A DNA stretch of 64,000 bases, from the NCBI GenBank assembly GCA_036002325.1, contig DASYTJ010000012.1:61457-125456 (forward strand), written 5' to 3'. This document shows, piece by piece, positions 8,319 through 64,000 of the stretch. The notes below the pieces were generated by a model. It was not told where the DNA came from. It saw only the letters and a program-made list of their open reading frames with translations, and ran no database searches. Numbering within the stretch: the first letter of the stretch is position 1; each line of letters opens with the position of its first letter. The stretch is from Thermoanaerobaculia bacterium (GTDB taxonomy: Bacteria > Acidobacteriota > Thermoanaerobaculia > Multivoradales > UBA5704). A program made the translations under genes and the position numbers.

Positions 8319-8491
8319 GGGAACGAATTCTGACAGACGCCGAGGCGAAGCACCACGGCAGGCAATCGGCAATCCAAAGGTGAAATTCCGCATGGAGACG
8401 GCAATTTAAAGATTTCTCGTGATTCTCCGCGACGGCGCCTCCCTTGCTGGAAGGCAGCACAGAAGCCCATACCGGCGGTACGTTTCTTGTC

Positions 8492-18978: not shown

Positions 18979-18994
18979 GCGGTCCGCGGGCCGC

Positions 18995-20822: not shown

Positions 20823-21814
20823 TCGCCAACGGAACCGCCCTGCCGAGCACCGAGCCGGCTGCGGGCGGCGGCGACCGCCGGGTGGTCTTCGAAAACGTCT
20901 CGAAGTTCTACGGCGACGTCCTGGGAGTGAACCGGGTGAACCTCTCGATCCCGCCGGGCATCACCGGCCTGGTGGGGCCGAACGGCTCCGGCAAGACGAC
21001 GCTGATGAACCTCATGGTGGGGCTGATCCGTCCGTCGCGAGGTCGCATCTCCGTGCTCGGCCTGGCGCCCGACGACGCCGAGCGGCTGTTCCGCCAGGTG
21101 GGCTACGCCTCGCAGTACGACGCCTTTCCGCCGGGCCTGACCGGTTATCAATTCATCGAGTCCTACCTGCGGGTACACGGCTTTGCCGCAAAGGAGGCGG
21201 AGGCCCTGACCTGGAAGGCTCTGGAGCGCGCCGGGCTGATCGACGCGGCCGGACGCAAGGTGGCCGGCTATAGCAAAGGCATGCGGCAGCGGGTGCGCCT
21301 CGCGCAGGCGATCTCCCATCAGCCCTCGGTGCTGGTGCTCGACGAACCGTTAAACGGGCTCGATCCCATGGCGCGCGCCGAGGCGATCGCCCTCTTTCGC
21401 GAGCTGGCGGACGGCGGGCTGCACGTCATCGTCTCGAGCCACATCCTGCACGAAGTCGATCTGATTTCCGACCAGGTGGTGCTCATCAACGGCGGCTACA
21501 TCGTGGCTGAGGGCGAGATCGCCGAAGTGCGTGACGAGATGGAGGAGCAGCATCCGGTGCAAGTGCTGATCCGCTGCGACCGGCCGTCGCTGCTGGCCTC
21601 GCGCGTCTTCGAGCAGGACCACGTGGTGGAAGCCCGCATCCTCGAGGACGGCCGGGGCTTGCTGGTGCGCACCCGCGACGCCGACCGCTTCCACCTGGTG
21701 TTGAACGAGATCGTGCTCGGCAGCGGCCTCGCCGTCGAGGCCATAGCGCCGGCCGACGCCGACGTCCACGCCGTTTATCAATATCTGATCGGTTCGAACG
21801 GAGAGAAGTCGTGA
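20819..21814 (+). CDS. ABC transporter ATP-binding protein (second copy)
   Basis: Walker [10 protein letters not shown], signature [15 protein letters not shown], Walker [13 protein letters not shown]. Confidence 0.85.
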
Positions 21815-22784: not shown

Positions 22785-23555
22785 ATGTTTCGCAAGACCT
22801 TTGCGTGGCTGCTCTTGGCCGGCCTGACCAGCGCCGCCGCCTGGGCCCAGACCGCAGACGAGATCATCGAGAAGCACCTGCAGGCGATGGGAGGCAAGGA
22901 AAAGCTCAAGGCGGTGCAGAGCGAGCGCATCACCGGCAAGATGGTGATGGGCCAGGGGATGGAAGCGCCTTTCACCATGGAGATGGCGCGGCCCAACAAG
23001 ATGCGTATGGAGTTCACCATCCAGGGCATGACTGGCGTCCAGGCCTTCGACGGCAAAACCGGCTGGTCGGTGATGCCTTTCATGGGCAAGACCGAGCCGG
23101 AAGCCATACCGGACGAGGACGTGAAGCGGATGGAGGAGCAGGCGGACATCGACGGCCTGCTGCTGGATTACAAGGAGAAAGGCCGCCAGGTCGAGTATGC
23201 CGGCAAGGAAGACCTAGAGGGCACGCCGGTGCACAAGCTCAAGGTGACCCAGAAGAACGGTGATGTGGTCTACGTGTATATCGACGCCGAGCAGTACCTG
23301 CAGCTCAAGCAGTCCGGCAAGACGAAAATCCGCGGCCAGGAGGTGGAGAGCGAGACCACCTTTGGCGACTTCAAGCCGGTCGAGGGCCTGGTCTTCCCGC
23401 ACTCGATCGAGCAGAAGGCCCAGGGCATGCCGTCCGGCATGGTGATGACCATCTCGAAGATCGAGGTGAATCCCGGTCTCACCGATAGCCGCTTCACCAT
23501 GCCCGCCGCCGAGAAGAAGGAAGCCCCGGCGCCGCCGAAGCCGCCGACGCGGTAG
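22785..23555 (+). CDS. LolA-like / outer-membrane lipoprotein-sorting fold protein (secreted)
   Basis: 256 aa; signal peptide MFRKTFAWLLLAGLTSAAAWA; beta-rich with pattern typical of LolA/RseB-like DUF proteins often found with ABC transporters and ECF systems. Confidence 0.45.
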   Translation: MFRKTFAWLLLAGLTSAAAWAQTADEIIEKHLQAMGGKEKLKAVQSERITGKMVMGQGMEAPFTMEMARPNKMRMEFTIQGMTGVQAFDGKTGWSVMPFMGKTEPEAIPDEDVKRMEEQADIDGLLLDYKEKGRQVEYAGKEDLEGTPVHKLKVTQKNGDVVYVYIDAEQYLQLKQSGKTKIRGQEVESETTFGDFKPVEGLVFPHSIEQKAQGMPSGMVMTISKIEVNPGLTDSRFTMPAAEKKEAPAPPKPPTR

Positions 23556-23641
23556 ATCGCCTTAAACCTGACGGGCGGGCGCCGCGAGGACGCCCCCCCA
23601 GAGCTCTCAGATCTTCTCCCATCTTTTGGAAGGGGACGCGT

Positions 23642-26600
23642 ATGCAATGGAAACCCAAGATGATTCTCTGCCTGGCGGCGGCCGGTCTGGCGATCATGGC
23701 CGGAGCGGCGCGTGGCGCCGAGGTGGAGATCGACTCGAACACCTTCGGCGGGCTGGAAGCCCGCTCCATCGGCCCCGCCGTCATGGGCGGCCGCATCGCG
23801 GCCATCGACGCCGTGCCCCAGGATCCGCTCACCATCTACGTGGGAGCGGCGGGAGGCGGAGTCTGGCGATCGAACGACGGCGGCGTGGCCTGGAAGCCTG
23901 TCTTCGACGAGCACGTGCAGTCGATCGGCGCGATTGCCATCGATCCCAAGAACCCCAAGACCGTCTGGGTCGGCACCGGCGAGTCGTGGACACGCAACAG
24001 CACCTCGGTCGGGGACGGTCTCTATAGATCGACCGATGGCGGGGACACCTGGCAGCGGGTGGGGCTCGAAAACTCGGAGCGCATCGCCCGCATCCAGGTG
24101 AGTCCGGCCGACGGCAATACCGTCTGGGTCTGCGCCACCGGCCATCTCTGGGACAGCCACGAGGAGCGCGGCGTCTACAAGACCAGCGACGGCGGCAAGA
24201 CCTGGAAGCGGGTGCTCTACGCCGACGCCGATACCGGCTGCTCCGATCTGGCGGTCGATCCCCAGGACCCGGCGATCCTGTTTGCGGGCCTGTGGCAGTT
24301 CCGGCGTAATCCCTGGTCGTTCAGCTCCGGCGGCAAAGGGAGCGGCCTCTACAAGTCGACCGACGGCGGCGAGACCTGGCGGCCCCTCGCCAGCGGGCTG
24401 CCGGCCGGAGAGAAGGGCCGCATCGCCGTTGCCGTAGCGCCGTCGCGGCCGAGCGTGGTCTATGCCCTGGTGGAGGCGGAGAAGACGGCCCTCTACCGCT
24501 CGGACGACGTGGGCGAGAGCTGGCGCGAGGTCAACTCGTCGTTCAACCTGCAAGTGCGCCCTTTCTACTTCGCCCGCCTCGCCGTCGATCCCACCGATTT
24601 CAAGACCATCTACAAGCCGGGCCTGATGCTGACCGTCAGCACGGACGGCGGTAAGACCTTCACCGCCGCCATCGGCCTGGGAGGTCTTTCCGGCCCGCAC
24701 GGTGATCACCATGCGCTCTGGATCAACCCGCAAAATCCGAGCGAGCTGGTGCTCGGCACCGACGGCGTCGTCTACATGTCTTACAACAAGGGTCTGCGGT
24801 GGCGCTTCCTCCGGGCACTGCCGGTCTCGCAGTTCTACCACGTCAGCTACGACATGAACCGGCCCTACCGGGTCTACGGCGGCCTGCAGGACAACGGCTC
24901 ATGGTCCGGGCCGTCGTCCGCCATCGGCGGCATCCAGAACCGCGACTGGTTCAACATTGGCGGCGGCGACGGCTTCTGGGCTTACAGCGACCCCACCGAT
25001 CCCGACCTGGTCTACGCCGAATACCAGGGCGGCGAGATCTCGCGCCGGCGGGTGTCGACGGGCGAGGAGAAGTCGATCAAGCCGCTGCCGGGCGCCGGTG
25101 AGCCGCCCTACCGTTTCAACTGGAACACCCCCATCGCCCTCAGCCCGAACGAGCCGGGGACCATCTACATGGGTGCGCAGTTCCTCTTCCGCTCGCGCGA
25201 CAAGGGCGACTCCTGGGAACGCATCTCGCCCGACCTCACCACCAACGATCCGAAGAAGCAGCAGCAGCTCAAGTCGGGAGGCCTGACGCGCGACAACTCG
25301 ACGGCCGAGAATCACACCACGATCTTCGCCATCAGCGAGTCGCCGAAGAACGGCAAGGTGCTCTGGGTGGGAACGGATGACGGCAACCTGCAGGTGACCC
25401 GCGACGGCGGCGCGCACTGGACGAACGTGGCGCCGAACGTCCCCGGCCTCCCCAAGGCGACCTGGGTGTCGTGTGTCGAGTCCGGACGTTTCGATGAGGG
25501 GACCGCCTTCGCCACCTTCGACGGTCATCAGGCCGGCGACATGAAGACCTACGTCTACCGTACGGCCGACTTCGGCAAGACCTGGACGCCGCTCGCCAGC
25601 GACGCCCTCTCGGGCTATGCCCACGCGATCCGTCAGGATCTGGAGAACCCGGAGCTCCTCTTTCTGGGAACCGAGATGGGTCTCTTCGTCTCCGTCGACG
25701 GCGGCGCCCGCTGGGCCCGCTTCACGGGCAAGCTCCCCATGGTCGCGGTGCGCGACATCGCCATCCACCCTCGCGAGTCGGACCTGATCCTCGCCACCCA
25801 TGGCCGCGGTGTCTACATCGTCGACGACATCACGCCGTTGCGAAAGCTGACCCGCGAAGCGCTCGAAGCGGACGTGACAATGCTGCCGTCGCGCACGGCT
25901 ACGATGGCCATTCCCGCCGGCGTGCAGGAGTTTCCGGGCGACGACGAGTACTTCGCAGCCAATCCCGAGGAGGCCGCCACCATCACCTATTACCTGAAGA
26001 AGCGGCATCTCTTCGGCGACCTGAAGGTCGAGGTTTACGACGCCAAGGGCCAGCTCATCTCAACCCTGCCCGGCGGCAAGCGGCGCGGCATCAACCGCGT
26101 GAGCTGGCCGATGCGCCTGCCGCCACCCAGGCTGCCGCCGGCGAACTCCCTGGTGATCGGATCCCAGTACGCGCTGTTCGGACCGCGCGTCCTCCCCGGC
26201 ACCTACACGGTCAAGCTCATCCAGGGCGATAAGACCTACACGAGCGAGGTGCGGCTCGTGCCGGATCCCCGCTCCCGGCACTCGGACGAAGATCGCGCGG
26301 CGCAGCACGAGACGGCGATGGAGCTCTACGGCATGCTCGGGCGCCTCACCTACGTCGCCGATACCGTCAAGGCTCTTGGAGATGCGGCCCAGAAGCGGGT
26401 CGAGGCCCTGCCGAAGGCAGACAGGCTGCGCCAGCAGCTCGGCTCGCTCGCCGGCGCTCTGGAGAGCTTCCGCGCCACTCTCGTCGCCACCAGCGAGGGC
26501 GGCTGGCTCTCCGGCGAGGAGCAGCTCCGCGAGAAGATGGCCAAGGTCTACGGCGCTGTCAACGGTTATGACGGCCGCCCGACCCGGCCGCAGCTCGATC

Positions 26601-26824
26601 AAACGAAGGTGCTGGCCGATCAGCTCGGCAAGGCCGAGAGCCGGCTGGAGGCGTTCGAGCGCGGTGAAGTGGCGGCGGTCAACCGCGAGCTGGCGAAGCG
26701 CAAGCTCGAGCCGCTGACGGCCAAGAGCCGCGAGGAATGGGAGAAAGAACAGGGCCAGCGAACGGCGGCGCTACCCGCCTGGCTGCCGTTCTCGTTTCTG
26801 GCTCTAGAGGTCGCGGCGGACTGA
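23642..26824 (+). CDS. BNR/Asp-box repeat beta-propeller protein (sortilin/VPS10-like), secreted
   Basis: 1060 aa; signal peptide; at least 10 Asp-box motifs (SNDGGVAWK, STDGGDTWQ, TSDGGKTWK, STDGGETWR, SDDVGESWR, SRDKGDSWE, TRDGGAHWT, TADFGKTWT, SVDGGARWA). Confidence 0.65.
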   Translation: MQWKPKMILCLAAAGLAIMAGAARGAEVEIDSNTFGGLEARSIGPAVMGGRIAAIDAVPQDPLTIYVGAAGGGVWRSNDGGVAWKPVFDEHVQSIGAIAIDPKNPKTVWVGTGESWTRNSTSVGDGLYRSTDGGDTWQRVGLENSERIARIQVSPADGNTVWVCATGHLWDSHEERGVYKTSDGGKTWKRVLYADADTGCSDLAVDPQDPAILFAGLWQFRRNPWSFSSGGKGSGLYKSTDGGETWRPLASGLPAGEKGRIAVAVAPSRPSVVYALVEAEKTALYRSDDVGESWREVNSSFNLQVRPFYFARLAVDPTDFKTIYKPGLMLTVSTDGGKTFTAAIGLGGLSGPHGDHHALWINPQNPSELVLGTDGVVYMSYNKGLRWRFLRALPVSQFYHVSYDMNRPYRVYGGLQDNGSWSGPSSAIGGIQNRDWFNIGGGDGFWAYSDPTDPDLVYAEYQGGEISRRRVSTGEEKSIKPLPGAGEPPYRFNWNTPIALSPNEPGTIYMGAQFLFRSRDKGDSWERISPDLTTNDPKKQQQLKSGGLTRDNSTAENHTTIFAISESPKNGKVLWVGTDDGNLQVTRDGGAHWTNVAPNVPGLPKATWVSCVESGRFDEGTAFATFDGHQAGDMKTYVYRTADFGKTWTPLASDALSGYAHAIRQDLENPELLFLGTEMGLFVSVDGGARWARFTGKLPMVAVRDIAIHPRESDLILATHGRGVYIVDDITPLRKLTREALEADVTMLPSRTATMAIPAGVQEFPGDDEYFAANPEEAATITYYLKKRHLFGDLKVEVYDAKGQLISTLPGGKRRGINRVSWPMRLPPPRLPPANSLVIGSQYALFGPRVLPGTYTVKLIQGDKTYTSEVRLVPDPRSRHSDEDRAAQHETAMELYGMLGRLTYVADTVKALGDAAQKRVEALPKADRLRQQLGSLAGALESFRATLVATSEGGWLSGEEQLREKMAKVYGAVNGYDGRPTRPQLDQTKVLADQLGKAESRLEAFERGEVAAVNRELAKRKLEPLTAKSREEWEKEQGQRTAALPAWLPFSFLALEVAAD

Positions 26825-26834
26825 GGGGTGGTCC

Positions 26835-26864
26835 TGTAGGGGCGCAGCATGCTGCGCCCCTACA
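26835..26864. terminator. REP-like perfect palindrome (cctGTAGGGGCGCAGCATGCTGCGCCCCTACaa), bidirectional terminator candidate
   Basis: 28-30 nt perfect palindrome between convergent BNR gene (ends 26824) and rpsU (ends 26930); identical 33-nt copy at 62255-62287, variant at 46467-46488. Confidence 0.6.
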
Positions 26865-41315: not shown

Positions 41316-41789
41316 ATGGCCGAGAGAGTCAAACCCTATAAGTCCGCGATCAACTACTGGCTGCTCGCCACCGATCCGGACGAATACAGCTACTACGATC
41401 TGGAGCGCGACACTGCCACGGTCTGGGACGGCGTCACCGATTACGAGGATCTGAAGACCCTGCGGGACGTCGAGCCCGACGAGGAGGCGCTCATTTTCCA
41501 CGCGGGCACGGAGCTCGCAATCGTCGGCATCGCCCGCATAACCTCGGATCCCTATCCGAACCCTCAGGGCACGAGCCCCGACGAAGTCGTGGTCGACGTC
41601 GTCCCCGAGCGGCGTCTGGAACGACCGTTACCGCTCGTCGAGTTCGAGGATCTTCCCGAGTTCGAGGACTTCGACCTGGTGGCAAACCCCGACCTCTCCG
41701 TCGTGCCCGTCACGCCGGAGCTCTGGAACCGGCTTCTCGAGCTGAGCGGGGCCGCGCTGGCGCTGTCCACACAGGAGGATCAGGAGTAG
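41316..41789 (+). CDS. EVE (PUA-like) domain protein
   Basis: 157 aa; NYWLLATDPDEYSYYDL...IARITSDPYP pattern of EVE domain. Confidence 0.65.
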   Translation: MAERVKPYKSAINYWLLATDPDEYSYYDLERDTATVWDGVTDYEDLKTLRDVEPDEEALIFHAGTELAIVGIARITSDPYPNPQGTSPDEVVVDVVPERRLERPLPLVEFEDLPEFEDFDLVANPDLSVVPVTPELWNRLLELSGAALALSTQEDQE

Positions 41790-41825: not shown

Positions 41826-42235
41826 ACAAGCTTCAGGCGAGCCGATGCAAGCTTGTGGCGAGCCGATGCAAGCCTGAGGTGACGCGACTGAAGCTTGAAG
41901 TGGCGCAATTGAAGGCGCAAGTGACGCGACGACTGCTTGAAGTGGCGCGGCTGAAGCTTGCGGCGAGCGGGTCGAAGCTTCCAGCGAGGCGGCGGAAGCT
42001 TGCGGGATTTCCGGCAAGCTTCAGCCGCGACGGCGCAAGCTTCAGGCGAGTGGGCACAAGTTTGCGGCGTGACGCGCGAAGCTTGCGGTGACCCGGTTGC
42101 AGCTTGCCGGGAGACGCCTGAAGCTTCTGGCGAGCCGATTGAAGCTGCAAACGAAGCGCCTGAAGCTTGCGGGATCTCCGGCAAGCTTGAACCGCAGCGC
42201 CGCAAGCTTTCTCCCGAGCCGCCTGAAGCTTGCCG
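41826..42235. repeat. Tandem array of about 20 imperfect 21-bp repeats each beginning AAGCTT (HindIII palindrome)
   Basis: Units such as caAGCTTcaggcgagccgatg, caAGCTTgtggcgagccgatg, AAGCTTgcggcgagcgggtcg, AAGCTTcaggcgagtgggcac; occupies whole convergent intergenic gap between EVE gene and esterase gene; generates frame-shifting KL-heptad pseudo-ORFs on both strands. Confidence 0.85.
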
Positions 42236-42236
42236 C

Positions 42237-42986
42237 TCACCACCCCATCCAGTCGATCGCGTACGGCAGCATCTTGCGCCACCACGGCCAATCGTGGTTC
42301 ACGTCGTGGCCCCAGATGTCGAGGAAGTGGGGAATCCCCTTGCTGAACAGGAGATCCGAGAGCCGCCGCGAGGCGTGCGGCGCCTCGTAGGCGCCCTGGC
42401 CGGTGAGGATGTGGATCTTGCACGCCGTCTGCAGCAGATGAAGCTGCTGGCCCGCCAGGTTCGGCAGATACCAGGCGGGGTTGTTGAAATAGCAATTGTC
42501 GTCGCTGTAGCCGTGCAGATAGTCCGGCTCCAGATCGTAGAAGCCGCTCATGGCGATGACGGCGTCGAAGAGGTCCGGCCGTCGAAAAAGGATATTGGCC
42601 GCGTGGAAGGCGCCGAAGCTGGCGCCGCAGGTGGCGATGCGGAGGTCGGGCGTCTGGCAGGCCTGGCGGATGAAGGGGACGACCTCCTCCTCCACGTAAC
42701 GGGCGTAGAGGGCCTGCCGGCGCGCCTGCTCGGGCACCGGCAGGCTGCGGTCCATCCAGGCCTGCTGGTTGATGCTGTTGATCGAGAAGATCCGCACCCG
42801 GCCGGCGTCGAGAGCCTGGTCGGCCGCCCCGATCAGATGGAAGCGCTCGTTCTCCAGGAAGTCCGCGGCGGCCGTGGGAAAAAGCAGCAGCGGGTGACCC
42901 CAGTGGCCGTAGGAGACGATGGGCATGTCCTGCCCCAGGATCGGGCTGTGCCAGCCCGCAATCTCGCGCCGATCGCCATACCCCAT
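42237..42986 (-). CDS. Esterase family alpha/beta hydrolase (putative esterase PF00756-like)
   Basis: Start at MGYGDRREIAGWHSP with RBS; GASFGAFHAANILF (G-x-S-x-G nucleophile elbow variant), C-terminal His. Confidence 0.6.
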   Translation of the reverse strand: MGYGDRREIAGWHSPILGQDMPIVSYGHWGHPLLLFPTAAADFLENERFHLIGAADQALDAGRVRIFSINSINQQAWMDRSLPVPEQARRQALYARYVEEEVVPFIRQACQTPDLRIATCGASFGAFHAANILFRRPDLFDAVIAMSGFYDLEPDYLHGYSDDNCYFNNPAWYLPNLAGQQLHLLQTACKIHILTGQGAYEAPHASRRLSDLLFSKGIPHFLDIWGHDVNHDWPWWRKMLPYAIDWMGW

Positions 42987-43099
42987 GGTCCTGGCCTCCT
43001 GCGGCTGAGCCCCGCGGAAAGAAATTGCGCCGGAGGATAACACTCTTGCTTGGCGAGGGCTGCCGGTGTCACAGTCCAACTTCCAGAGAGACCGGAGCC

Positions 43100-43867
43100 A
43101 TGGAGAGAATCCCCGTCGTCGCGAACGGCCGCGAGGTGTCCCACCTCGCCGTGCGCTTCGATCCGCCTGCGAAAGGTCAGGGAACCACAGTCCTCTACCT
43201 CCACGGATTTGGCTCCGAGCAATCGGGGGAGAAGGCCGAGTTCTTTCGCCGGCAGGCGCTCGCGGCAGGCTTCGGATTCTGCTCCTTCGACTTCCAAGGC
43301 CACGGACTCTCCGGCGGCGAGATCGGCTCCCTCACCCTGACGCGCAACTTGGAGGACGTCCGCCGCGTCCACGATTTCCTGCGCGCCCGCGGGCAGGAGC
43401 GGCTCGTCCTCGTCGGCTCGTCGATGGGCGGCGGCACGGCGCTCTGGTACTCGGCGCTCCATCCCGAGGACATCGTCGCCGGCCTGCACATCGCTCCGGC
43501 GCTGGAATTGGAGCGCGGCCTCCTCGCCTGGGCGGGGCCGGAGAGGGAGCGCATCTGGCAGGAAACGGGAACCATCCATTTTGAGAACGAGTTCGTCTCC
43601 TGCGAGCTCGGCTGGTCGCTGATCGATGACCTGCGCGCCCATCCTGTCGAGGCGCTGCTCGCCCATTACCGCACTCCCTGCCTTCTGCTCCAAGGCAAGC
43701 AGGACCCCTCGGTCCCCTGGCGCGGCGTCGCCGAGTTTGCCACGCGCTGTACTTTTCAGGAGATCGAGCTGCATCTCTTTGCGGACGGCGATCACCGCCT
43801 GACCGACCGCAGGGAGAGACTCTGGGAGCTGATGATGGAGTTCCTGCAGGGGCGGGGATTGATCTAG
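43100..43867 (+). CDS. Alpha/beta hydrolase
   Basis: Start MERIPVV; HGFGSEQSG, GSSMGGGTALWY (GxSxG), C-terminal DGDHRL (catalytic His). Confidence 0.7.
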   Translation: MERIPVVANGREVSHLAVRFDPPAKGQGTTVLYLHGFGSEQSGEKAEFFRRQALAAGFGFCSFDFQGHGLSGGEIGSLTLTRNLEDVRRVHDFLRARGQERLVLVGSSMGGGTALWYSALHPEDIVAGLHIAPALELERGLLAWAGPERERIWQETGTIHFENEFVSCELGWSLIDDLRAHPVEALLAHYRTPCLLLQGKQDPSVPWRGVAEFATRCTFQEIELHLFADGDHRLTDRRERLWELMMEFLQGRGLI

Positions 43868-43915
43868 CATGGGGGCGTCAGGGTTTGCGATGAAACTTCA
43901 CCCCCACGACGCCCC

Positions 43916-43948
43916 TGCTCCGAGAGCTCCTGGATTCTCCGCGAAAGC
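43916..43948. repeat. 33-nt perfect direct repeat copy 1 (tgctccgagagctcctggattctccgcgaaagc)
   Basis: Identical copy at 44196-44228; lower-GC non-coding-looking region. Confidence 0.8.
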
Positions 43949-44195
43949 GATTGAAGCCCGTCTTGGAAACTCATCTGGTTGGTAAGGCGCTTGTCAACTT
44001 GTCGATAGCTCTTCGTTGGGAGATTATTCGACGCAGTACGCGAGCCTCGCGTAGCAGCTACCGCCTCGCATAATTTGGTCGAGTTCCTTGCGACCGCCGG
44101 CCATGTCTTGTTGGCCCAGAAGCTACTCGCTCAGGTTCGTCCCTTCTACCAGTTGTTCCGAGAGCCACAGTTCCAATGCCGACGTTTGTGGGCGG

Positions 44196-44228
44196 TGCTC
44201 CGAGAGCTCCTGGATTCTCCGCGAAAGC
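44196..44228. repeat. 33-nt perfect direct repeat copy 2
   Basis: Identical to 43916-43948. Confidence 0.8.
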
Positions 44229-44707
44229 CGCGATCTGGCCTCCGCCGTGCTCGAGTCATGCTGATCTCGCGGTGCAGAAGGGCTTGGGGTCACATCTCTC
44301 TTCAAAGCAACTGGGAAGCTTAGCCGAATCGCCGCGACACGGCAGATATAGATAAAAGCAAATATTGATGCCGGGTTGCCGGCGGGCGCGGCTTTTGTAC
44401 TGTATATTATCGGCGCCGACAACTTCCGGGCGCGGGAAGGTGGGAGGGCAGGGACAGACTACGGATGTGACGTTACCGGGAGCGAGGCATACGTGACGAC
44501 GCGGGATAGATTCTTCTCCGTGAAATGCCAGCCGGGGTAGGGAATCGATCTAGCGTAGACTAGCCTCGCCCAAGCCGGACTCCTAAAGCAGGCGAGGATC
44601 CCCTCGATATCGGATCCTCTGTTCGCCAGAGTGCGCTGCTCACACGAGGCAATCCTCGCGTGGCCGGGGTGGCCGCCGGGGTGGTTGCCCAAGGAGGGAG
44701 AGAGTTC

Positions 44708-44953
44708 ATGTCCCGTAAGATTCGATTCGCCGTCGCCTTGACCCTCGCAGTACTCACCTGCGGAAGCCTGGGGGCTCTGCCCCTGGGCTCCCCCATCGCC
44801 TCTGCCGAGAGAGGTGACTTTCTCACCGCGATTGTGGAGTGGATCGTCTCCGTTTTCGTGCCGGAGCAGCCCTCGGAAGGTGCCCCCAAGCCTGCACAGC
44901 TCAAGGACAACGGCACGATGGACCCCAACGGCGGAACGGGCGGCGGTCACTAG
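44708..44953 (+). CDS. Small secreted peptide precursor (81 aa) of unknown function
   Basis: Strong RBS AAGGAGGGAG 7 nt upstream of ATG; signal peptide MSRKIRFAVALTLAVLTCGSLGALPLGSPIASA; mature about 48 aa with amphipathic stretch and Gly-rich C-terminus NGGTGGGH; lower GC than genome. Confidence 0.4.
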   Translation: MSRKIRFAVALTLAVLTCGSLGALPLGSPIASAERGDFLTAIVEWIVSVFVPEQPSEGAPKPAQLKDNGTMDPNGGTGGGH

Positions 44954-47389: not shown

Positions 47390-50300
47390 TCAACGGCCGC
47401 CGGCTCCTCCCGCAGTGACCGCCGCCCCGGGAGCCGCGACGGGGACCATCGGCTGGCGGCCGCCGGAGATCGCCCAGATATGGTCGCGCAACGCCGTCGA
47501 GACCTTGTCCGCATCGGCAAGCCAGGCGTTCATCTCCGCCTCGGAGGAGAACCACCGGAGGATCTGCTGCTTCTGGGCGGCGAAGGCCGGCGAGGCGAGC
47601 TGGAACGGCACGGGGGACACGAGCTTGCCGGAGGGATCTCGCGAGAAGAAGTTCGGCATCCGCGTGCTCGGCACCCAGGCTTGCGGATCCTGAATCCACA
47701 ACGGCACCCAATCGTAGCGCAGGCGGTCGTGGGCCATCAGCAGCGATGGCGCCAAATCCCCCGAGGCCGCCGCCGCCGAAACCGGCGCGGTCGGATGGCA
47801 GCGCGCGCACTGCAGCATGCCGAACACCACGCCGCCCACGGCGAGGCTCCGCGGATCGGGTGCCGGCGGCTCGGAGAGGAAAGGCGAGCGCTGCTCGCGG
47901 GCCTGGAAATAGGAGATGACGGTGTTGGCCTGGTCGTCCGTGAAGCCGAACGTCGGCATGCGGACGGTGAGCCACGGCCGCATCTTCACCCGGCTCGGGT
48001 CGTGCAGATAGCTGAACAGCCAGTCGCCCTGCACGCGCGCCCCTTCGGCGGCGAGGTTCGGCGGCAACGAGGCTTCGTTGTCGCCGAGCAGGCTCTTGAT
48101 GGCGCGGCCGTGCCCCTCGATCAGGTGGCAGCCCTGGCAGTTGTAGCGGGTGATCAGCTTGCGCCCCTCGGCGAGCGCCGCCGTCCGCGCGTCGTTGCCG
48201 GCGCGGCGGGGCGCGAGCGCCGATTCCTTGGTGAAGCCCATGACGTTGGCGAGCACCGCCGTGGCCTCGCGCTGCGACATGCCGAAGTTCGGCATCTTGA
48301 GCAGCTCGTTGTAATCCTTGGCGGCCTCCTTGCCTTCGTCCCACATCCGCGGCCGCAGCAGCTTGTTGAACACCCAGTCCTGCCGCGTGTGCGGCACTTC
48401 GTGAACGTGGCCGAAGTCGAGCTGGTGGAGCGGCTTCGAGCCCTCCTGCGTCAGCTCGGTGCCGATCGGCTTGGTGTTCTCGAAGCCCTTGATGTCGTGG
48501 CAGCCGTAGCAGCCATACTTGGCGATCGTCTGCTCGCCGAGATAGACGTTGCGCTCGGCCTCTGACATGGCGGCGAGCTTGGCGCGGCTGCGATCCATGG
48601 TGTAGAGGTTCTGGAGATAGCCGAGCGCCAGCTCGTCGCGCACGCCGCGGTCGACGGCCGGCAAGGCCGCGTTCTCGTACGCGCGGTTGTGGTTCGGCGC
48701 GTCGAGCAGGTACGCCGTGATGTCCGCCGCCTCCTGATCGGTCAGGCGGAGGTTCGGCATGTTGGTGTCGGGGAAGTACTGCTTCGGGTTCCTGATCCAG
48801 GCGTAGAGCCAGCCGCGCGACACCTTGCTGCCGGTGTTGACCAGGTTCGGGCCGTGCAGGCGGTTGATCAGAGGAAAGAAATCGTCGCGCTTGGCCTTGG
48901 CGTCGAGGAGATGGCAGCCGCCGCAGCCCACAGTCTCGAAGAGCTGCTTGCCGTGCGCCGGATCGCCCATCGGCACGGCCACGTCGTCGTAGACCGGCCG
49001 CTCCGACTTCGCCCACAGGTAGGAGACGATGCCGTTGATCTCCGCCTGCTGCCGCTTCAGGTTGGCCGGCGTGGTGGTGTTCTCCTGGTTGAAGAAGTGG
49101 GGCATCCAGGTCGTGGGATGGAAGTTGCGCGGCGCCTCGATCCACTTGTAGGCCCAGCCGGGATTCGTCTTGCCGGCGAGGCGCAGCAACGAAGGGCCCG
49201 CCTTGCGCAGGCCCGTGAAGCCCGGCAGGTTGATGTTGTGGCAGCCGTAGCAGCCCATGTGCGCGATCAGCTCGCGCCCCACCTCCTGCTCGTCCGACTT
49301 CGGCGTCCAGACGCCGCTGGCGTGACAGCCGACGCAGCCGGACTCGGCGAGGTTGGCCGGCAGGATGGGGTAGTCGAGGAACTGCGGCTGCGACCAGCCC
49401 CACTTCCGCTGCCACTCCCCCTTCTTCTCCTCCCAGGCCTTCTTCGACGCCTCGTCGTGAGCCTGCAGCAACGGCAGGTTGTGGCCGGCGCGGGCGAATT
49501 CGGTGGCGCGGTCGAGGCCGCCGTGGCAGATGGTGCAGCCGAAGCGGCTGTAGGGGTGGGGCGAGGAGTCGCCCACGAACAGGTCGATCCGCGGATGGCT
49601 GCGGAACGGCTCCGGCCACTCCACCTCTTTGGTGTTCGGGTCGTCCAGGAAGCCCGGACGGTTCGCCGCCACGTGGCAGGTCATGCAGCGGTCGACGCGG
49701 TCGATGTTGGTGAAGTTGATGTTCTGGTAGAGCCCCGGCAGGATGACCTGCTCGACCTTGAGGCTCGGCTTCAGGAAATCCATCAGCGGCGCGTTGAGGA
49801 GGAAGTAGTCGACCCCTTTGCCGAGGCTGGCGATGCGCGTCTCGATATTTTCGACGCCGCTCTGCAGGTCCTTGAGTTTCTTCTCCGCGCCGGTGAGCAG
49901 CGCCTGCTTGTCGGCCAGCCGGCGCTGCGCGTCGTCGAGGCCGTCCTGCGCCTCCTCCTTCTTGTGCTGGGCGTCGATGAACGCCTTCCGCGCCTCCTCG
50001 TAGTCCTCTGCCGCCGCCGCCGCGGCGCCCTTGTCGCCCGTCTGCAGCGCCGTGTCGTACTGGAACTTGTAGGCGTCGGAGCGCGCCTTGGCGCCCTTCC
50101 ACGCCGTATCGGCGATGTTGTACTGGGTCTTGCGGTCCTTGATCTCGTCCTCCAGCTTGTCGAGATCCTGGCGGTGCTGGTCGAGCTCCGCCTGCGCCCG
50201 CTGAATCTCCTGCTTGAGCTGCGCGAGGTCGTTCTGGTTCAGCCGCTGCTTCTCCGCCTCGGCCTCCTTCTCCAGCTTCTGCCGCTCCAGGCTGCGGAAC

Positions 50301-50461
50301 TCCGACTGGATCCGCTTCCACGGCTGCGCGTAGTCCGCGAAGGCCATCCACAGCGTCACCGCCAGCAGCGCGAGGGAGCTGATGGCGAACCACATGTTCA
50401 TACGGCCGAAGTTGTAGTGGCGGTCGGGACGCTTCTCAGGCGGTGTAGTGGGCGGTGTCAA
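47390..50461 (-). CDS. Octaheme c-type cytochrome with N-terminal TM anchor and coiled-coil
   Basis: 1023 aa; eight CxxCH motifs (CMTCH, CTICH, CVGCH, CYGCH, CGGCH, CYGCH, CQGCH, CARCH). Confidence 0.8.
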
Positions 50462-50476
50462 CGTGGAGCTCCTGTG

Positions 50477-51556
50477 CTAGATATTGAAGAAGTACTCCTG
50501 GACGTGGACGAAATACTTGAGGTTGAACAGCCAGCGGCAGTACATCTTGATCGGCAGCAGCATCATGAACAGGAACAGCGTCACGCCGACGTAGTAGCGG
50601 GGCGGCCCCATCTTCTCGTAATACTTCTTGAACCATTTGGTACGGCGCAGCAGCACCGGCAGGCCGATGAAGTAGAAGCCGATGAGCAGGATGCCCGGCA
50701 GCTCGCGCACGAACCAGTTGCCGGGCAGGCCGACGTTCAACAGCTTGATCCAGAAGTACTCCGAGAGGTCGACGTTGACCAGCGCCTCGACCTTGTTCTG
50801 GTCCCAGAACTCGTACGGCCCGAAGAAGTTCCAGTTGGGGCCGCGCAGGAAGGTGCCGATGACGATCATCTGGCTCCACAGCACCAGCCAGCCGAAGAAG
50901 AAGAGCGTGATCTCCACCTTGCGCTCGCGGAAGGTGTAGTAGCCGTTGCCCTTCGGGTTGGTGTCGATGTAGGGGATCGCCATCAGCCCGAGGATGATGA
51001 GCCCCGGCAGCACGACGCCGGCGAGCCAGGGGTCGAAGTAGACGAGCATCTCCTGCAGGCCGAGGAAGTACCACGGTGCCTTCGAAGGGTTCGGCGCCAG
51101 CGCCGGGTTCGCCGGCTCCTCCAGCGGCGCCCTCAGGACGATCGACCAGACGACCATCACGACCGTCAGGATCACCATGCAGATGAACTCGGAGAAGACG
51201 AGGTCCGGCCAGGTGAAGATGCGGTCCTCCACCTCGGTGGTCTCGAACAGCGGCTCGCCGTTGGCGGTCCGCGCGTCGTTGGCGGTGGCCTTGCTCATCG
51301 CGAACCAGACGAAGAAGCCCACCAGGAAGACCATCATCACGATCGGCACGTTGTCCGGCTTGGCCACGATCGAACGGAAGTTCGGATCGAGCAGCGAGGC
51401 GAGGAAGTAGGCGGTGCCGGCCGCCAGCAGGATGAGGCCCCCCCGCTTCGTCCACAGCCGCTTCGACCGCAGCATGAGGATGAAGAGGATCACCGACAGG
51501 GTGAACGACCAGTAGGGATACGCGAGGACGTTGATGGCTTGCTTGATGAAGTCCAT
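50477..51556 (-). CDS. Cytochrome b C-terminal domain protein (subunit IV-like, extended)
   Basis: 359 aa polytopic; PEWY-type motif [11 protein letters not shown]. Confidence 0.75.
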
Positions 51557-51577
51557 GGCTGTCTCCGCCCTCCTCGA

Positions 51578-52357
51578 CTACATGGGCCCCGAGATGCCGC
51601 CGTCCTTGCGGACGCGCCAGAAGTGGACGGCGATCAGGAACGCCGCTACCAGCGGAATCCCCACACAGTGCAGCACGTAGAAGCGGATCAGCGTGGCGTT
51701 GCCGATCGTGCGGCCGCCGATCAGCGCGAAGCGTGCGTCGCTGCCGGCGTGGATCAGACGTTGCCCCCCCAGCTTGAGGAGGGCGGCACCCGGTCCCTCG
51801 TTGCCTAACAGCGGTGTCGCCCGCGCCATGTTGGAGCCCACGGTGATCGCCCAGATGGCGAGCTGGTCCCAGGGCAGCAGGTAGCCGGTGAAGGAGAGCA
51901 GCAGGGTCAGCACCAGCAGGATGACGCCGACGTTCCAGTTGAACTCGCGGGGCGGCTTGTAGGAGCCGGTCATGAAGACGCGGAACATGTGCAGCCAGAC
52001 CGCGATCACCATGGCGTGGGCGCCCCAGCGATGCAGCTCGCGCATGATGCCGAAGGCGGCGGCCTCGCGCAGGTCAACGATGTCCACGAAGGCGTACTCC
52101 ACGGACGGCCGGTAGTAGAACATCAGCAGCAGTCCGGTGATCGTCTCGACGAGGAACAGGAAGAACGCCGTTCCCCCCATGCACCAGGTGTAGCTCATCC
52201 GGATGCCGGACTTCTTCACCTTGATCGGGTGCAGGTGAAGCACCACGTTGCCGAGCATGGCGAGGGCGCGCTTGCGGTTGTCCGTCGGGATGCCCACCCG
52301 AAAGATGGACCTCCAGATCTGTGACTTGGTGACGCTCTTGGACAGGTTGCCGATCAT
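51578..52357 (-). CDS. Cytochrome b N-terminal domain (b6-like, heme-binding)
   Basis: 259 aa; His ligand pairs in helices B and D (HRWGAH...H, HCVGIP...HFWRVR); [11 protein letters not shown]. Confidence 0.8.
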
Positions 52358-52373
52358 GAGTCCTCTTTCGTGG

Positions 52374-53060
52374 TCAGGCGGCCGGGATGAAGGCGTTGGG
52401 GTCTTCCCACTGCCCCAGCTCCCATTGGAACTTCTGCGACTTGTCGACGACGATCTGGCCGTCGTCGGGGCTGATGAAGATGCGCGCGCGCTCCAGCGGC
52501 CGCGGCGTCGGCCCCTCGAAGTTGACGCCGCTCTTGTAGTAGCCGCTGCCGTGGCAGGGGCACTTGAACTTGTTCTGCGTCTCCAGCCAGGCAGGCGGGC
52601 AGCCCAAGTGGGTGCAGATGGCGATCAACGCGTAGATCCGCCCCTGGTCGTGGACGATCCACACGCCATACTTGTCGACGAAACGTGTATCCACCACGCC
52701 CGCCTGAAAGTCCTCCGGCTTGCCGACCTTGAAGCTGGTCGGCGGCTCGAACAGCACGTTGGGGAACATGAAGCGGGTCATCGCTGTGACGCAGCCGCCG
52801 ATCGCCACCGTGAAGCCGACCCAGGCCACGGCGGCCCAGGAGAAGAAACCGCGGCGCGTCATGTCCGCCGCGGCGGCCGGCTTGGCCGCCGGCGCAGGTT
52901 TGGGCGCAGGTTTGGTGGCGGGAGAGGCAGGCGCGGAAACTGCGGCCGGGCTCGTCACCGGCGAAGCGGACGCAGCCGTAGCTTCCCCGCCGGCCTGGGC
53001 GCTGGGCGCCTGTGGAGCGGTCGGTTGGGACGGAGGGCTGCCTTCGGGTTCGTCAGCCAT
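52374..53060 (-). CDS. Rieske [2Fe-2S] iron-sulfur protein
   Basis: CTHLGC...CPCHGS boxes; N-terminal Ala/Pro-rich region and TM. Confidence 0.8.
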   Translation of the reverse strand: MADEPEGSPPSQPTAPQAPSAQAGGEATAASASPVTSPAAVSAPASPATKPAPKPAPAAKPAAAADMTRRGFFSWAAVAWVGFTVAIGGCVTAMTRFMFPNVLFEPPTSFKVGKPEDFQAGVVDTRFVDKYGVWIVHDQGRIYALIAICTHLGCPPAWLETQNKFKCPCHGSGYYKSGVNFEGPTPRPLERARIFISPDDGQIVVDKSQKFQWELGQWEDPNAFIPAA

Positions 53061-61511: not shown

Positions 61512-61604
61512 TGGGGCCTTCGAATGAGGGAAGGAGTGGAAGACGAGCGTTGTTCCGGGTTAGACTTACCCGAAAGCATTGTCATTCCTGAAGGAGGCTC
61601 ACCC

Positions 61605-62237
61605 ATGAAGCGTATTTCGACCCTCGCCCTCTGCGCCGCTCTGCTCCTCGCGATGTTCGCGGCGCCGAACCTGACTCGGGCGGCCGGCAAGAGCGACAAG
61701 CCGCGCCTCGCCGTCCTGGAGTTCAAGAACAAGGCTGATAATCAATGGTGGTGGCACGGCGGCGCCGAGGCGGCGCAGGACGTGTTCGTCACCGAGCTCG
61801 TCAAGAGCGGCAAGTTCCGCGTCGTCGAGCGCGAGCAGCTCCAGGCCCTGATGCAGGAAAAGAACCTGACTCTCTCCGGCGATGTCGATCCGGCGACGGC
61901 GGTGAAGGTGGGCAAGCTCCTGGGCGTCAACTACCTGCTGACCGGCGCCGTGACCGAATACGGAGTGACCGACAAGAGCGCTCATGGTTCCGGCGTCGGC
62001 CGCCTCCCCGGCTTCTCTGCCGGCAAGCGCAGCTTCGTCGCGGCCCTGAACGCCCGGCTGATCGACACCTCGACGGGCGAGATCGTCTGGGCTGACGAGG
62101 CGAGCGAGGAAGAGAGCAGCGTGAAGGTCTCGGTGGGCGGCTTCGGCGGCGGCGTCGACGACGACCGGATGTTCGACAAGGTCATGAAACCCTGCATCCA
62201 GAAGCTCACCGCCAGCCTCAAGGCGGCCGACCTGTAA
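61605..62237 (+). CDS. CsgG-like (curli production assembly/transport component family) lipoprotein
   Basis: RBS GGAGG; signal MKRISTLALCAALLLA; LAVLEFKNKA, VVEREQLQALMQE, YLLTGAVTEY typical of CsgG/DUF fold. Confidence 0.55.
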   Translation: MKRISTLALCAALLLAMFAAPNLTRAAGKSDKPRLAVLEFKNKADNQWWWHGGAEAAQDVFVTELVKSGKFRVVEREQLQALMQEKNLTLSGDVDPATAVKVGKLLGVNYLLTGAVTEYGVTDKSAHGSGVGRLPGFSAGKRSFVAALNARLIDTSTGEIVWADEASEEESSVKVSVGGFGGGVDDDRMFDKVMKPCIQKLTASLKAADL

Positions 62238-62257: not shown

Positions 62258-62287
62258 TGTAGGGGCGCAGCATGCTGCGCCCCTACA
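62258..62287. terminator. REP-like perfect palindrome, identical copy of 26835-26864 element
   Basis: Between convergent CsgG-like gene and kinase-TonB gene. Confidence 0.6.
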
Positions 62288-62293
62288 ATGGTC

Positions 62294-64000
62294 CTACCGC
62301 AGCGGCGGCTTGAAGTTCACCCGCATGGTCCGCCACATCTTCACGCGGATCCCATCCTTGGTGGCAGGCTGGAACACGGCCCGCCGGGCGGCGTCGAGGG
62401 CCGCCTCATCGAAACCGAAACCGGCCTTCGCTCCCAGCAGCTCGGCATCCAGAACCCGGCCCCGCTCGTCGACAAGAACCTTGATATCCACCTGAGCCGA
62501 ACGGTTCAGCCGCTGCGCCGCCGGCGGATAGCGGGGATCGGGCTGCGAGACGAGCTTCGGCGCGACCACACCCGGACCCGTCTGCACCAGATCTCCAACC
62601 TGCACCTGCGGCTGTCGCGGAGGAGCGGACTGGACCGGCGCCGGGTTGGCCGGCGCCGTGGCGCTGTCGACCTTCGTGTCTCCTTGGCTGCTGGCGGCAC
62701 CCGGCTGCGGAGCGGGCGCGCTGGTCTGCGGCGGCGCCGGCGCCGCCGCCGCGGGCTCGGTGCGCTGGGCGGCGCGGGTGTCCGCGGGCGCCGGCGTCGG
62801 CTCCTGCTGAAGCGCCGGCCGTTCCTGCCTCGGCGCCTCGGCGGTCGCCCGCTTGCTGTCCTCGAGCTGCTGTTGGAGCTGCTTGATGCGGTCGTCGTAC
62901 TGCGCCTTGTACTTGGCCTCCATCTCCTTCTGACGCGCCTCGAACATCTGCTGGATCTGCGCCTGGATCTCCTCGGGCGTCAGCGCGGCCTGCGTGGGGG
63001 GCGCGCCGACGGGAGGAACGGCGGCTCCCGGCATGGTGGCTGGCTGCGCGGCGGGCGAAACCGCGGGCGCTGGCGGCTTCGCCGCCGGTTGGGCGGACTT
63101 TTTGCCGCCGGACTGGACCCACAGGAAATAGCCGCCGACGGCGAGGGCGATCACGGCGGCCGCCGCGATGCCGATCCATAGCGGCTTCCGCGAAGGCTCG
63201 GCTTCCTTCGCCACCTGCGCCCTCGTCCCCGGCCAGGTGGCTTCGCGCACTCCGGTTACCTCGCGCAGATCCTGCGGCGCCGGGGCCGGCGCGACCGTCG
63301 GCGCCGTGACGACCGGGCGCTGCGGCAGCTCGAGCTTCTTCTCAGCCTGGATCTCCTGGTTCTCCCGCTCGATCTCGTCGCGGAAGAGGTTGTGCATGAA
63401 GAAAGCCAGATTGAAGGTGGTCGGGCTGAAGTGGCCGTCGATCATCAGCTTCGACAGCGTCTTGTGCCAGGTGACGGCATCGGCGATCCGCTGTTCGCGG
63501 GGCACCAGGCTCTTCTTGAGGAGGGCCGCGACGGGAGCCGGAAACGGCGTGCCGTCGTTGGCCAGGACGGCGCCGTCGATCCGCGCGCCGTGCCCTTCCG
63601 GCGGCGCGGCGGGGAGCCGCTCGCCGGTCAGCAGCTCGAAGAGAATGGCGCCGAGGGAGTAGACGTCGTCTGCCTTTGTGAGCGGCGCGCCGGTCAGGGT
63701 CTCTGGCGAGAGATAGGGGCGGATCGAGTCGTCCTGCCAGCCGCCTGCCTGATCGCGCAGGCCGGGCGCCACCTCGAAGCCGAGCAGGCGGGTCTCGCCC
63801 TCGTTGGAGATCATCACCAGGTGCGGCACCACGAAGCCGTGCAGCACCCGTTCGTCCTGCATCCGGCTCTCGTGGGCGGCGGCGAGGGCGAGCGAGATGC
63901 GCTCAGCGATCAGCAGCGCATGGTCGGTGGGAATCGGAGAATGCTGCCGGGCGGCCTGCGCGAAGAGAGTCGCCAGGTTCTTGCCCGAGATGTAATCGTA
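62294..64000 (-). CDS. Protein-kinase-like (likely pseudokinase) domain / TM / Pro-rich linker / TonB C-terminal domain fusion; 5' end beyond window
   Basis: In-frame translation continues upstream of the first Met to the window edge (YDYISGKNLATLFAQAARQHSPIPTDHALLIAERISLALAAAHESRMQDERVLHGFVVPHLVMIS...DVYSLGAILFELLTG); catalytic HRDLKPxN replaced by HGFVVPHLV; C-terminus matches TonB_C. Confidence 0.6.
   Translation of the reverse strand, partial: YDYISGKNLATLFAQAARQHSPIPTDHALLIAERISLALAAAHESRMQDERVLHGFVVPHLVMISNEGETRLLGFEVAPGLRDQAGGWQDDSIRPYLSPETLTGAPLTKADDVYSLGAILFELLTGERLPAAPPEGHGARIDGAVLANDGTPFPAPVAALLKKSLVPREQRIADAVTWHKTLSKLMIDGHFSPTTFNLAFFMHNLFRDEIERENQEIQAEKKLELPQRPVVTAPTVAPAPAPQDLREVTGVREATWPGTRAQVAKEAEPSRKPLWIGIAAAAVIALAVGGYFLWVQSGGKKSAQPAAKPPAPAVSPAAQPATMPGAAVPPVGAPPTQAALTPEEIQAQIQQMFEARQKEMEAKYKAQYDDRIKQLQQQLEDSKRATAEAPRQERPALQQEPTPAPADTRAAQRTEPAAAAPAPPQTSAPAPQPGAASSQGDTKVDSATAPANPAPVQSAPPRQPQVQVGDLVQTGPGVVAPKLVSQPDPRYPPAAQRLNRSAQVDIKVLVDERGRVLDAELLGAKAGFGFDEAALDAARRAVFQPATKDGIRVKMWRTMRVNFKPPLR

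Follow-up and report, generated by a model that had tools for sequence, protein, structure and literature searches.

TonB proteins, which are textbook force transducers, have almost nothing on the cytoplasmic side. The membrane anchor of E. coli TonB is defined by an SxxxH (SHLS) signature, which holds the only functionally essential side chain of this anchor and is needed for the coupling to ExbB/ExbD; linkage of tonB to exbBD is often lacking. One known kind of envelope protein comprises TonB-like proteins that carry effector domains in the cytoplasm, another comprises the bacterial membrane pseudokinases, and the gene described here joins these two kinds. This gene lies at the end of a stretch of 64,000 nucleotides (the window: positions 61,457 to 125,456 of contig DASYTJ010000012.1, assembly GCA_036002325.1 of a Thermoanaerobaculia bacterium) and encodes a catalytically dead Hanks-type kinase fold that is fused, via one transmembrane helix and a periplasmic spacer, to a TonB C-terminal domain (TonB_C).

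The described systems with which this protein can be compared are of several types. Proteins of the TonB family generally lack a cytoplasmic domain (PMC8262864). GltJ, which with GltG belongs to the Agl-Glt gliding machine of Myxococcus, combines a switch domain in the cytoplasm with a single transmembrane helix and a TonB-C domain, and it connects cytoplasmic switches to outer-membrane partners (PMC11135422). In Enterococcus, the PASTA kinase phosphorylates MltG (PMC12369325). Membrane pseudokinase scaffolds are known from EssB/YukC of the type VIIb secretion system (T7SSb) and from the pseudokinase domain of MviN/MurJ (ActPs3), MviN being tied to peptidoglycan synthesis (PMC12599244). An atlas that covers 300,000 Ser/Thr kinases of bacteria and its companion review distinguish seven pseudokinase families (ActPs1, ActPs2, ActPs3, GLW, CP1, DYD and DLHK), and neither a TonB domain nor an origin in Acidobacteriota is described for any of the seven in these two sources (PMC12599244; bioRxiv 10.1101/2025.01.12.632604). 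The GLW family is proteobacterial, has GLW instead of HRD and a poly-Leu (LLLL/W) β3 strand, and carries a transmembrane helix C-terminal to the pseudokinase (same sources).

The gene is on the minus strand, and its 3' part (residues 90-657 and the stop codon) occupies 62294-64000 of the window. From 64000 onwards the frame is uninterrupted until a stop codon is reached at 62294-62296, so that 568 residues are encoded inside the window, whereas the first 89 codons lie beyond its edge; residue r of the 657-residue protein corresponds to window position 64000-3(r-90). A database search finds the full-length protein (P0001, 657 residues, 100% identical, annotated as "TonB family protein") on a 230-kb contig of a Thermoanaerobaculia metagenome-assembled genome, where the frame is intact from the N-terminal Met. 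In the list of open reading frames (ORFs) of the window, the ORF begins at Met136 (63862), because it runs off the window. The preliminary description, made from the letters of the window, held that the kinase-like frame continues past this first Met to the edge, and the intact frame of P0001 confirms this. As this identical protein is uninterrupted over its 657 residues, no stop codon or frameshift separates the kinase part from the remainder of the gene.

Both domains are detected by profile searches. With the 568 residues encoded in the window, the Pfam Pkinase family (PF00069) is matched with an E-value of 7.4e-10 and 39.1 bits (cut-off 31.7) over profile positions 79-196, being the C-terminal two-thirds of the profile, and the full-length protein scores 42.3 bits against the same cut-off; the kinase-like region thus scores above the gathering threshold of the kinase profile. 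The Pfam TonB_C family (PF03544) is matched by residues 577-653 (E-value 1.7e-14, 54.4 bits, cut-off 24.6). In NCBIfam, the TonB C-terminal model TIGR01352 is matched in full (E-value 6e-15, 55 bits, cut-off 27.1) and the PknB-type kinase models are matched only in part. The same database search yields more than 100 full-length relatives with 63-86% identity, each having both Pfam domains. The fusion of a kinase-like and a TonB_C domain, as proposed in the preliminary description, is therefore correct in every particular. This architecture is already visible in public annotation (as two precomputed Pfam domains and the name "TonB family protein"), but no paper describing a pseudokinase or kinase fused to TonB_C is found in the searchable literature.

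The kinase fold is catalytically dead, as judged from a phmmer alignment with the solved kinase domain of StkP, in which all the residues for ATP binding and phosphotransfer are seen to be replaced. The β3 (VAIK) lysine is Arg42, the αC glutamate is Arg61, and the position of the Gly-rich loop (GxGxxG) reads L-T-E-D-P-L-G-E. The catalytic loop (63818-63841, minus strand) reads H143-G-F-V-V-P-H-L150 instead of HRDLKPxN, such that the aspartate is replaced by Phe145, the lysine by Val147 and the asparagine by Leu150. The DFG motif is degenerated into G163-F164-E165 (63773-63781, minus strand), RLLGFEVA being aligned with KVTDFGIA of StkP. The stretch HGFVVPHLV and the subdomain IX motif DVYSLGAILFELLTG that follows it, both of which had been pointed out before, are present and are aligned with IVHRDLKPQNILL and DIYAMGIIFYEMLTG of StkP, respectively. 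The structural core is retained, including the APE glutamate (Glu189), the subdomain IX aspartate (Asp201) and the subdomain XI arginine (Arg260), and conserved Ser/Thr phospho-acceptors are absent from the activation loop. The assignment as a pseudokinase, which had been based on the catalytic loop, is borne out and extended by the loss of the αC glutamate, the catalytic-loop asparagine and the Gly-rich loop. The question whether the VAIK lysine or the DFG motif would be found upstream is answered by the replacement of both (Arg42; GFE), in support of a dead kinase.

The same losses are shared by diverse relatives. A search of 1.84 billion cluster representatives returned 413 clusters at E-values of 1e-30 or lower, and 121 representatives of at least 560 residues were aligned with the query. 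In almost all of the approximately 115 full-length pseudokinase representatives among them (30-63% identity) the catalytic residues are likewise lost: HG[FALM] is found in the place of HRD, a residue other than Asp at the DFG position and a residue other than Lys at β3 (R, Q, H, C, Y and others) nearly throughout, with few exceptions that concern single positions, such as P0240, which keeps the β3 lysine.

The dead domain is also the best-conserved part of the protein. The mean pairwise identity of 21 orthologues is 88% for the N-lobe, 80% for the C-lobe, 91% for the helices at 281-312 that follow the kinase fold and 77% for TonB_C, and it is 41-55% for the linkers. The helices at 281-312 are the most conserved segment in three alignments (91%, 73% and 48% mean pairwise identity), and Phe285 is invariant in 50 diverse members. 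In these 50 members His143, Gly144, Pro148 and Gly163 are each at least 90% conserved, and in the clade with 40-100% identity the same holds for Arg26, Arg42, Arg61, Glu18/Asp19/Glu23 and Glu165. Since the dead domain is the best-conserved part and its losses are common to diverse relatives, the gene encodes a selected pseudokinase and is not decaying; by these identities the pseudokinase is under purifying selection, and selection is strong on the kinase fold and on TonB_C alike. The notion that the gene is decaying, that it is chimeric by assembly or that a kinase gene and tonB were joined by chance, for which nothing speaks except that the gene is cut by the window edge, can be set aside as having a negligible probability. 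It is rejected on the strong purifying selection and on the intact ORFs of approximately 650 codons, identical or related, that are present in no fewer than 354 species genomes and on independent contigs numbering in the hundreds.

These species genomes were found by scanning one genome per GTDB species with an alignment of 20 sequences, by which at least 354 of them encode a relative. The best 80 genomes are labelled Thermoanaerobaculia, Thermoanaerobaculaceae, Thermoanaerobaculum, Holophagales or Acidobacteriota, with three exceptions, of which one has the label Deltaproteobacteria and two have no label for the phylum. A deeply diverged subgroup (approximately 31% identity, with HGA/AGQQ motifs), in many members of which Pfam fails to detect the kinase, is from Thermoanaerobaculia wherever the source names the organism. 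The protein is conserved across this acidobacterial class.

The overall architecture is described by an AlphaFold model of the 657-residue protein, built on 50 diverse sequences (mean predicted local distance difference test score, pLDDT, 82.9); with an alignment of 21 close orthologues, the N-lobe was left at a pLDDT of 54. Residues 1-280 are modelled as a complete bilobal Hanks-type kinase fold with pLDDT values of 91-98, except for the first ten residues (85). The part of this domain that is visible in the window (residues 90-280; 63428-64000, minus strand) comprises the end of the N-lobe, the hinge and the whole C-lobe, is matched by Pfam Pkinase, aligns to StkP, PknB and PknA, and has pLDDT values of at least 95 nearly throughout, with lower values in the blocks 171-180 (91) and 221-230 (92). 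When the model is compared with the PDB using Foldseek, the matches are the bacterial Hanks kinases PknA, PknI, PknB and Stk1 as well as eukaryotic kinases, with target-normalised TM-scores of 0.72-0.81 for PknA and PknI, the value of 0.81 being obtained with the kinase domain of M. tuberculosis PknI. The kinase fold is followed by a C-terminal extension (residues 281-312, SPTTFNLAFFMHNLFRDEIERE...; 63332-63427, minus strand), in which two further helices (residues 284-310, pLDDT 95-98) pack after the kinase fold.

The remaining segments, all on the minus strand, are a disordered cytoplasmic juxtamembrane linker (residues 313-360, 63188-63331; pLDDT below 50 over 332-359), a single transmembrane helix preceded by basic residues (residues 361-385, 63113-63187; seen in the model and in the columns of the 50-sequence alignment), a Pro/Ala-rich disordered periplasmic linker (residues 386-430, 62978-63112), a 47-residue periplasmic stalk helix (residues 431-477, 62837-62977; pLDDT 90-94), a second, Pro-rich disordered periplasmic linker (residues 478-555, 62603-62836) and the TonB_C domain (residues 556-657, 62297-62602; Pfam, TIGR01352 and AlphaFold). 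The latter domain has pLDDT values of 95-98, with 90 and 88 for its first and last blocks, and aligns to the C-terminal domain of E. coli TonB (PDB entries 1u07 and 2gsk), where its YP motif, in the form RYP, is opposite the QYP of E. coli TonB. The transmembrane helix, the Pro/Ala-rich linkers and TonB_C agree with the preliminary description. The long periplasmic linker of that description is, in addition, seen to be divided by the stalk helix and is thus not disordered throughout. Among close orthologues the stalk helix has 71% identity when compared with 41-44% for the linkers at either side, it matches coiled-coil Pfam families weakly, and it is probably a coiled coil. The 657-residue protein has no signal peptide, one transmembrane segment and basic residues before the helix, from which we infer that the kinase fold is cytoplasmic and TonB_C is periplasmic, connected by one transmembrane helix. 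By this topology about 360 residues are cytoplasmic, 310 of which are folded in the model.

The juxtamembrane linker has a clade-specific motif (RE.TGVRE.T..G), of which Arg335, Glu336, Arg341, Thr344 and Gly347 are invariant in the 21 close orthologues; in distant members the linker (residues 313-360) is unconserved (21% identity). The conserved Thr338 and Thr344 of this linker resemble juxtamembrane phosphosites of active Hanks kinases.

A second family of proteins is related to this one and has an intact kinase. Among the 150 matches listed in the search of cluster representatives, six keep the VAIK, HRD and DFG motifs, behind an N-terminal extension, and these six align with the query along its whole length (residues 5-653; the shortest of them, P0261, covers 22-428). 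A search with one of them (P0230) finds a large family of proteins of 1000-1250 residues, annotated as 'TonB family protein' and from Thermoanaerobaculia wherever the source names the organism, and in all 120 aligned members the β3 lysine, the HRD motif, the asparagine and the DFG motif are intact. This active paralogue has 31% identity with the window protein over residues 5-653 and 50% in TonB_C, and it has the transmembrane helix, the stalk helix and TonB_C in common with it. It differs by its intact catalytic motifs, by its genomic context and by approximately 400 additional N-terminal residues, which comprise a receiver-like domain (Pfam Response_reg in some members) and some 300 Pro-rich residues. 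An active paralogue (P0438) and an orthologue of the pseudokinase (P0089) are encoded on the same 1.59-Mb contig, approximately 1.06 Mb apart, and a second genome probably also has such a pair (P0484; locus L044). At two loci of the active paralogue (L094 10001-13219 and L085 8001-11264, each encoding an intact Hanks kinase with TonB_C) yebC or ruvC is just upstream, a 77-residue ORF, accD and folC are downstream, and ftsEX is 7-8 kb upstream. As an architecture, the active paralogue is itself uncharacterised. On sequence grounds, it could be speculated that the juxtamembrane motif R-E-x-T-G-V-R-E-x-T-x-x-G of the pseudokinase is a candidate target of this paralogue.

The conserved neighbour of the pseudokinase gene is the cell-wall gene mltG, whose product is the terminase of peptidoglycan glycan strands. 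The upstream context, which is beyond the window, is taken from orthologous loci, in which lptD and a thiolase gene are divergent, after which ruvX, mltG (yceG) and finally the pseudokinase gene share a strand. In tblastn searches mltG is directly upstream and on the same strand in 67 of the 74 genome loci having enough upstream sequence, with a median gap of 173 bp between the high-scoring segment pairs. The whole block is kept in a member with 36% identity, and the ruvX-mltG-pseudokinase unit persists in the HGA subgroup with 31% identity, where the flanking genes encode a T2SSE ATPase and a topoisomerase IB; in another subgroup with 31% identity, in which the contig starts within mltG, at least the mltG-pseudokinase pair is kept and a thioredoxin-like gene is downstream. 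As mltG is kept at 31-36% protein identity where other flanks have changed, its linkage exceeds what would be expected from local synteny.

Considering these properties, we propose that the protein is a non-catalytic, envelope-spanning receptor or scaffold of the inner membrane that functions in signalling and is not an enzyme, and we assign to this proposal a probability of roughly 0.45. A role in envelope or cell-wall signalling, or as a scaffold, is suggested because the conserved neighbour is mltG and because an active-kinase paralogue exists. In such a mechanism TonB_C would attach either to the cell wall or, by pairing of a β-strand or 'TonB-box', to a protein of the outer membrane; homo- or hetero-oligomerisation would be driven by the stalk helix, with a contribution from the kinase folds, and the pseudokinase would be a non-catalytic cytoplasmic switch or docking platform. 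The pseudokinase might pair with the active kinase-TonB_C paralogue and modulate it, or recruit cell-wall factors such as MltG, or do both, whereby the state of the envelope or the peptidoglycan would be linked to cytoplasmic signalling. In diderms the protein would then correspond to the PASTA-kinase/MltG axis known from Firmicutes, and likewise to proteins that combine a cytoplasmic domain with TonB_C, such as GltJ.

Several observations weigh against this proposal. The partner, the ligand of TonB_C and the pairing of the coiled coil are putative. Some pseudokinases retain nucleotide binding, and the loss of ATP binding is here predicted from the sequence. That the active paralogue and the pseudokinase occur together has been verified for a single genome, and a second case is probable. 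The adjacency of mltG could be inherited synteny. Two distant lineages do not have mltG as a neighbour (one has bamD and a gene for a LysM protein upstream, the other has unrelated genes), and the gap between mltG and the pseudokinase gene of one relative contains a hairpin and a promoter-like sequence (TTGACA-N17-TATCAA), so that co-transcription is not established.

The comparison with the described systems is informative here. PknB, StkP and PknA provide the best sequence and structure matches of the cytoplasmic domain, and they have the same layout of a kinase domain, a juxtamembrane linker, one transmembrane helix and an extracytoplasmic sensor. The known functional target MltG of the PASTA kinases has its counterpart in the mltG gene that is the conserved neighbour of the pseudokinase gene. 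The window protein differs from the PASTA kinases by being dead and by having TonB_C as its sensor instead of PASTA repeats, for which there is no match in Pfam or NCBIfam; the NCBIfam model of the PASTA kinases (NF033483, PknB_PASTA_kin) gives 61.5 bits, compared with a cut-off of 450. With GltJ and GltG the protein shares its design, in which a regulatory domain in the cytoplasm is followed by a single transmembrane helix, a flexible part in the periplasm and TonB-C. The cytoplasmic domains of GltJ are ZnR and GYF domains, which bind MglA and AglZ, and neither is found by Pfam in the cytoplasmic part of the window protein (which matches Pkinase only), nor are there glt or agl genes in the contexts examined. 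EssB/YukC, MviN and the GLW family resemble it in having a dead kinase fold on a membrane anchor, with a scaffold role. GLW is the nearest catalogued family by layout, the C-terminal transmembrane helix being the sole match; when held against the published description of GLW, the window protein differs in its motifs (HGF and VVLLR) and in its taxon (Acidobacteriota), but it could still be a member of this family.

The proposal can be taken a step further, to a Thermoanaerobaculia kinase/pseudokinase pair of TonB_C-tipped, envelope-spanning receptors that is a diderm analogue of PASTA-kinase signalling, in which the dead partner allosterically sets the live one. We consider this extended form doubtful. 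By it, both proteins would reach the outer membrane or the cell wall via their closely related TonB_C domains and would form hetero-oligomers through the stalk helix and the kinase domains, and the live kinase would act on cell-wall targets such as the adjacent MltG. If this were true, TonB_C would be newly used as a sensor for Ser/Thr phosphosignalling instead of as a force transducer, and the pair would be the first bacterial case of a eukaryote-style receptor kinase/pseudokinase heterodimer.

The alternatives to a signalling receptor or scaffold start from the same architecture. The preliminary description suggested a coupling to the energisation of outer-membrane transporters or to TonB-dependent signalling across the envelope, by which the protein would be a genuine TonB paralogue, energised by ExbB-ExbD and opening TonB-dependent outer-membrane transporters, with the pseudokinase gating or tuning this activity. 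In agreement with this, the YP-motif TonB_C is complete, with a β-α-β core, and can be aligned with that of E. coli TonB, the Pro-rich spacers are long enough to cross the periplasm, the single anchor is oriented N-in as in TonB, and in one relative the gene of a TonB-dependent receptor is approximately 8 kb away. The C-terminal domain may bind a TonB box. The anchor helix, however, has no SxxxH-type motif and no conserved Ser or His, a His being present in one of 50 diverse members. No ExbB, ExbD or TonB-dependent receptor is found among the approximately 40 window ORFs that were scanned, and none of their genes adjoins the pseudokinase gene in the related loci that were read (80 genome loci were screened for ten other reference neighbours only). 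The gene is instead linked to mltG, and the protein further departs from TonB by the long helix inside its spacer and by a folded cytoplasmic domain of 310 residues where TonB has few residues and TonB proteins generally have no domain at all (PMC8262864). The suggested coupling therefore remains without support from the anchor helix or the neighbouring genes, and we regard this weakly supported alternative as rather improbable.

By another explanation, which we think unlikely, the protein is a passive structural tether between the inner membrane and the outer membrane or peptidoglycan, like Tol-Pal or OmpA-type proteins, and the kinase fold is a stable anchor or oligomerisation knob that conveys no information. 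The envelope-spanning architecture with its probable coiled-coil stalk would fit a tether, as would the envelope genes in the neighbourhood, being mltG, lptD and the CsgG/LpoB-like gene discussed below, or bamD and the LysM-protein gene in another lineage. The conservation is in excess of what a passive knob would need, as it is highest in the cytoplasmic domain and includes surface-forming segments as well as the remodelled active-site residues Arg26, Arg42, Arg61, His143 and Gly144. A signalling context is also indicated by the active-kinase paralogue, which has this same periplasmic module.

It is much less plausible that a rewired active site makes the fold an atypical enzyme with activity, or a sensor of nucleotides or ligands, as in WNK, CASK, SelO or the SidJ-type 'pseudokinases'. 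The remodelled pocket is conserved (Arg26, Arg42, Arg61, Glu18/Asp19/Glu23 and Glu165) and could mark a new ligand site, and ligand binding is kept by some pseudokinases (PMC12599244; bioRxiv 10.1101/2025.01.12.632604). Against this, the β3 lysine, the αC glutamate, the HRD aspartate, the catalytic asparagine, the DFG aspartate and the Gly-rich loop are all gone together, the acidic loop TEDPLGE should repel phosphates, and no alternative catalytic constellation is evident.

Bacterial pseudokinases have been catalogued only recently, and a class-wide conserved pseudokinase-TonB_C protein, with an active twin and a link to mltG, is now added to them. This suggests an unexplored diderm route by which the state of the outer envelope or cell wall is tied to cytoplasmic Ser/Thr signalling, a function of TonB_C outside nutrient uptake, and a natural kinase/pseudokinase pair for studying the allosteric function of bacterial pseudokinases. 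The hosts are abundant Acidobacteriota of soils and sediments, which are largely uncultured and known almost only from metagenomes.

Downstream of the pseudokinase gene, a convergent gene (61524-62237, plus strand) encodes a CsgG/LpoB-like secreted protein (Pfam CsgG, E-value 4.6e-35; LpoB, 2.6e-12), with a likely start Met at 61602 that is followed by a signal-peptide-like segment. The next genes in the window are maeB and a DUF3891 gene. A homologue of the CsgG/LpoB-like gene is found within 700 bp downstream of the pseudokinase gene in 42 of 60 genome loci, and as it is convergent in 40 of these 42 it is rejected as an operon partner.

A perfect palindrome of 28 bp (GTAGGGGCGCAGCATGCTGCGCCCCTAC; 62259-62286, with no strand assigned) lies in the 57 bp that separate this gene from the pseudokinase gene. 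It has two exact copies in the window, where none would be expected, the second being at 26836-26863, and both copies come directly after the end of a gene. The palindrome also occurs unchanged in another genome (locus L001, 9799-9826), between mltG and a pseudokinase gene whose product is approximately 68% identical to the window protein. It has no T-run and is not called as a terminator by a consensus scan. One possibility is that it forms a hairpin at the 3' end of each of the two genes; it could also be a dispersed element, similar to repetitive extragenic palindromic sequences, that these Acidobacteria share.

Elsewhere in the window, several genes are of separate interest. A gene at 6951-8405 (minus strand) encodes a protein of glycosyl hydrolase family 47 (the class I α-mannosidase family; E-value 1e-123). 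This family is mainly eukaryotic and is unusual for a bacterium. An 883-residue protein with an anti-sigma zinc finger (zf-HC2), a FecR domain and a DUF3352 domain is encoded at 16327-18978 (plus strand) and is followed by two genes of ABC ATPases (18908-19960 and 20810-21814); together these may form a trans-membrane signalling module that is unrelated to the pseudokinase. The region 47390-52624 (minus strand) is an unusual bc-type respiratory cluster, with the gene of a 1028-residue multi-haem cytochrome c having a FixO-like segment beside split cytochrome b genes (50477-51577 and 51578-52624).

In a region of approximately 3 kb (41833-44950), just downstream of an EVE-domain gene (41316-41789), the scanned ORFs of 160-360 residues (41958-43040, plus strand; 42833-43870 and 44459-44950, minus strand) have no Pfam match, and none of them passed a coding filter based on GC3/GC2, in contrast to the window elsewhere; this region could be foreign or non-coding DNA. 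Two further genes encode large envelope or secreted proteins, being a 1111-residue Sortilin/Vps10-BNR repeat protein (23489-26824, plus strand) and a 1031-residue DUF2339 membrane protein (2750-5845, plus strand).

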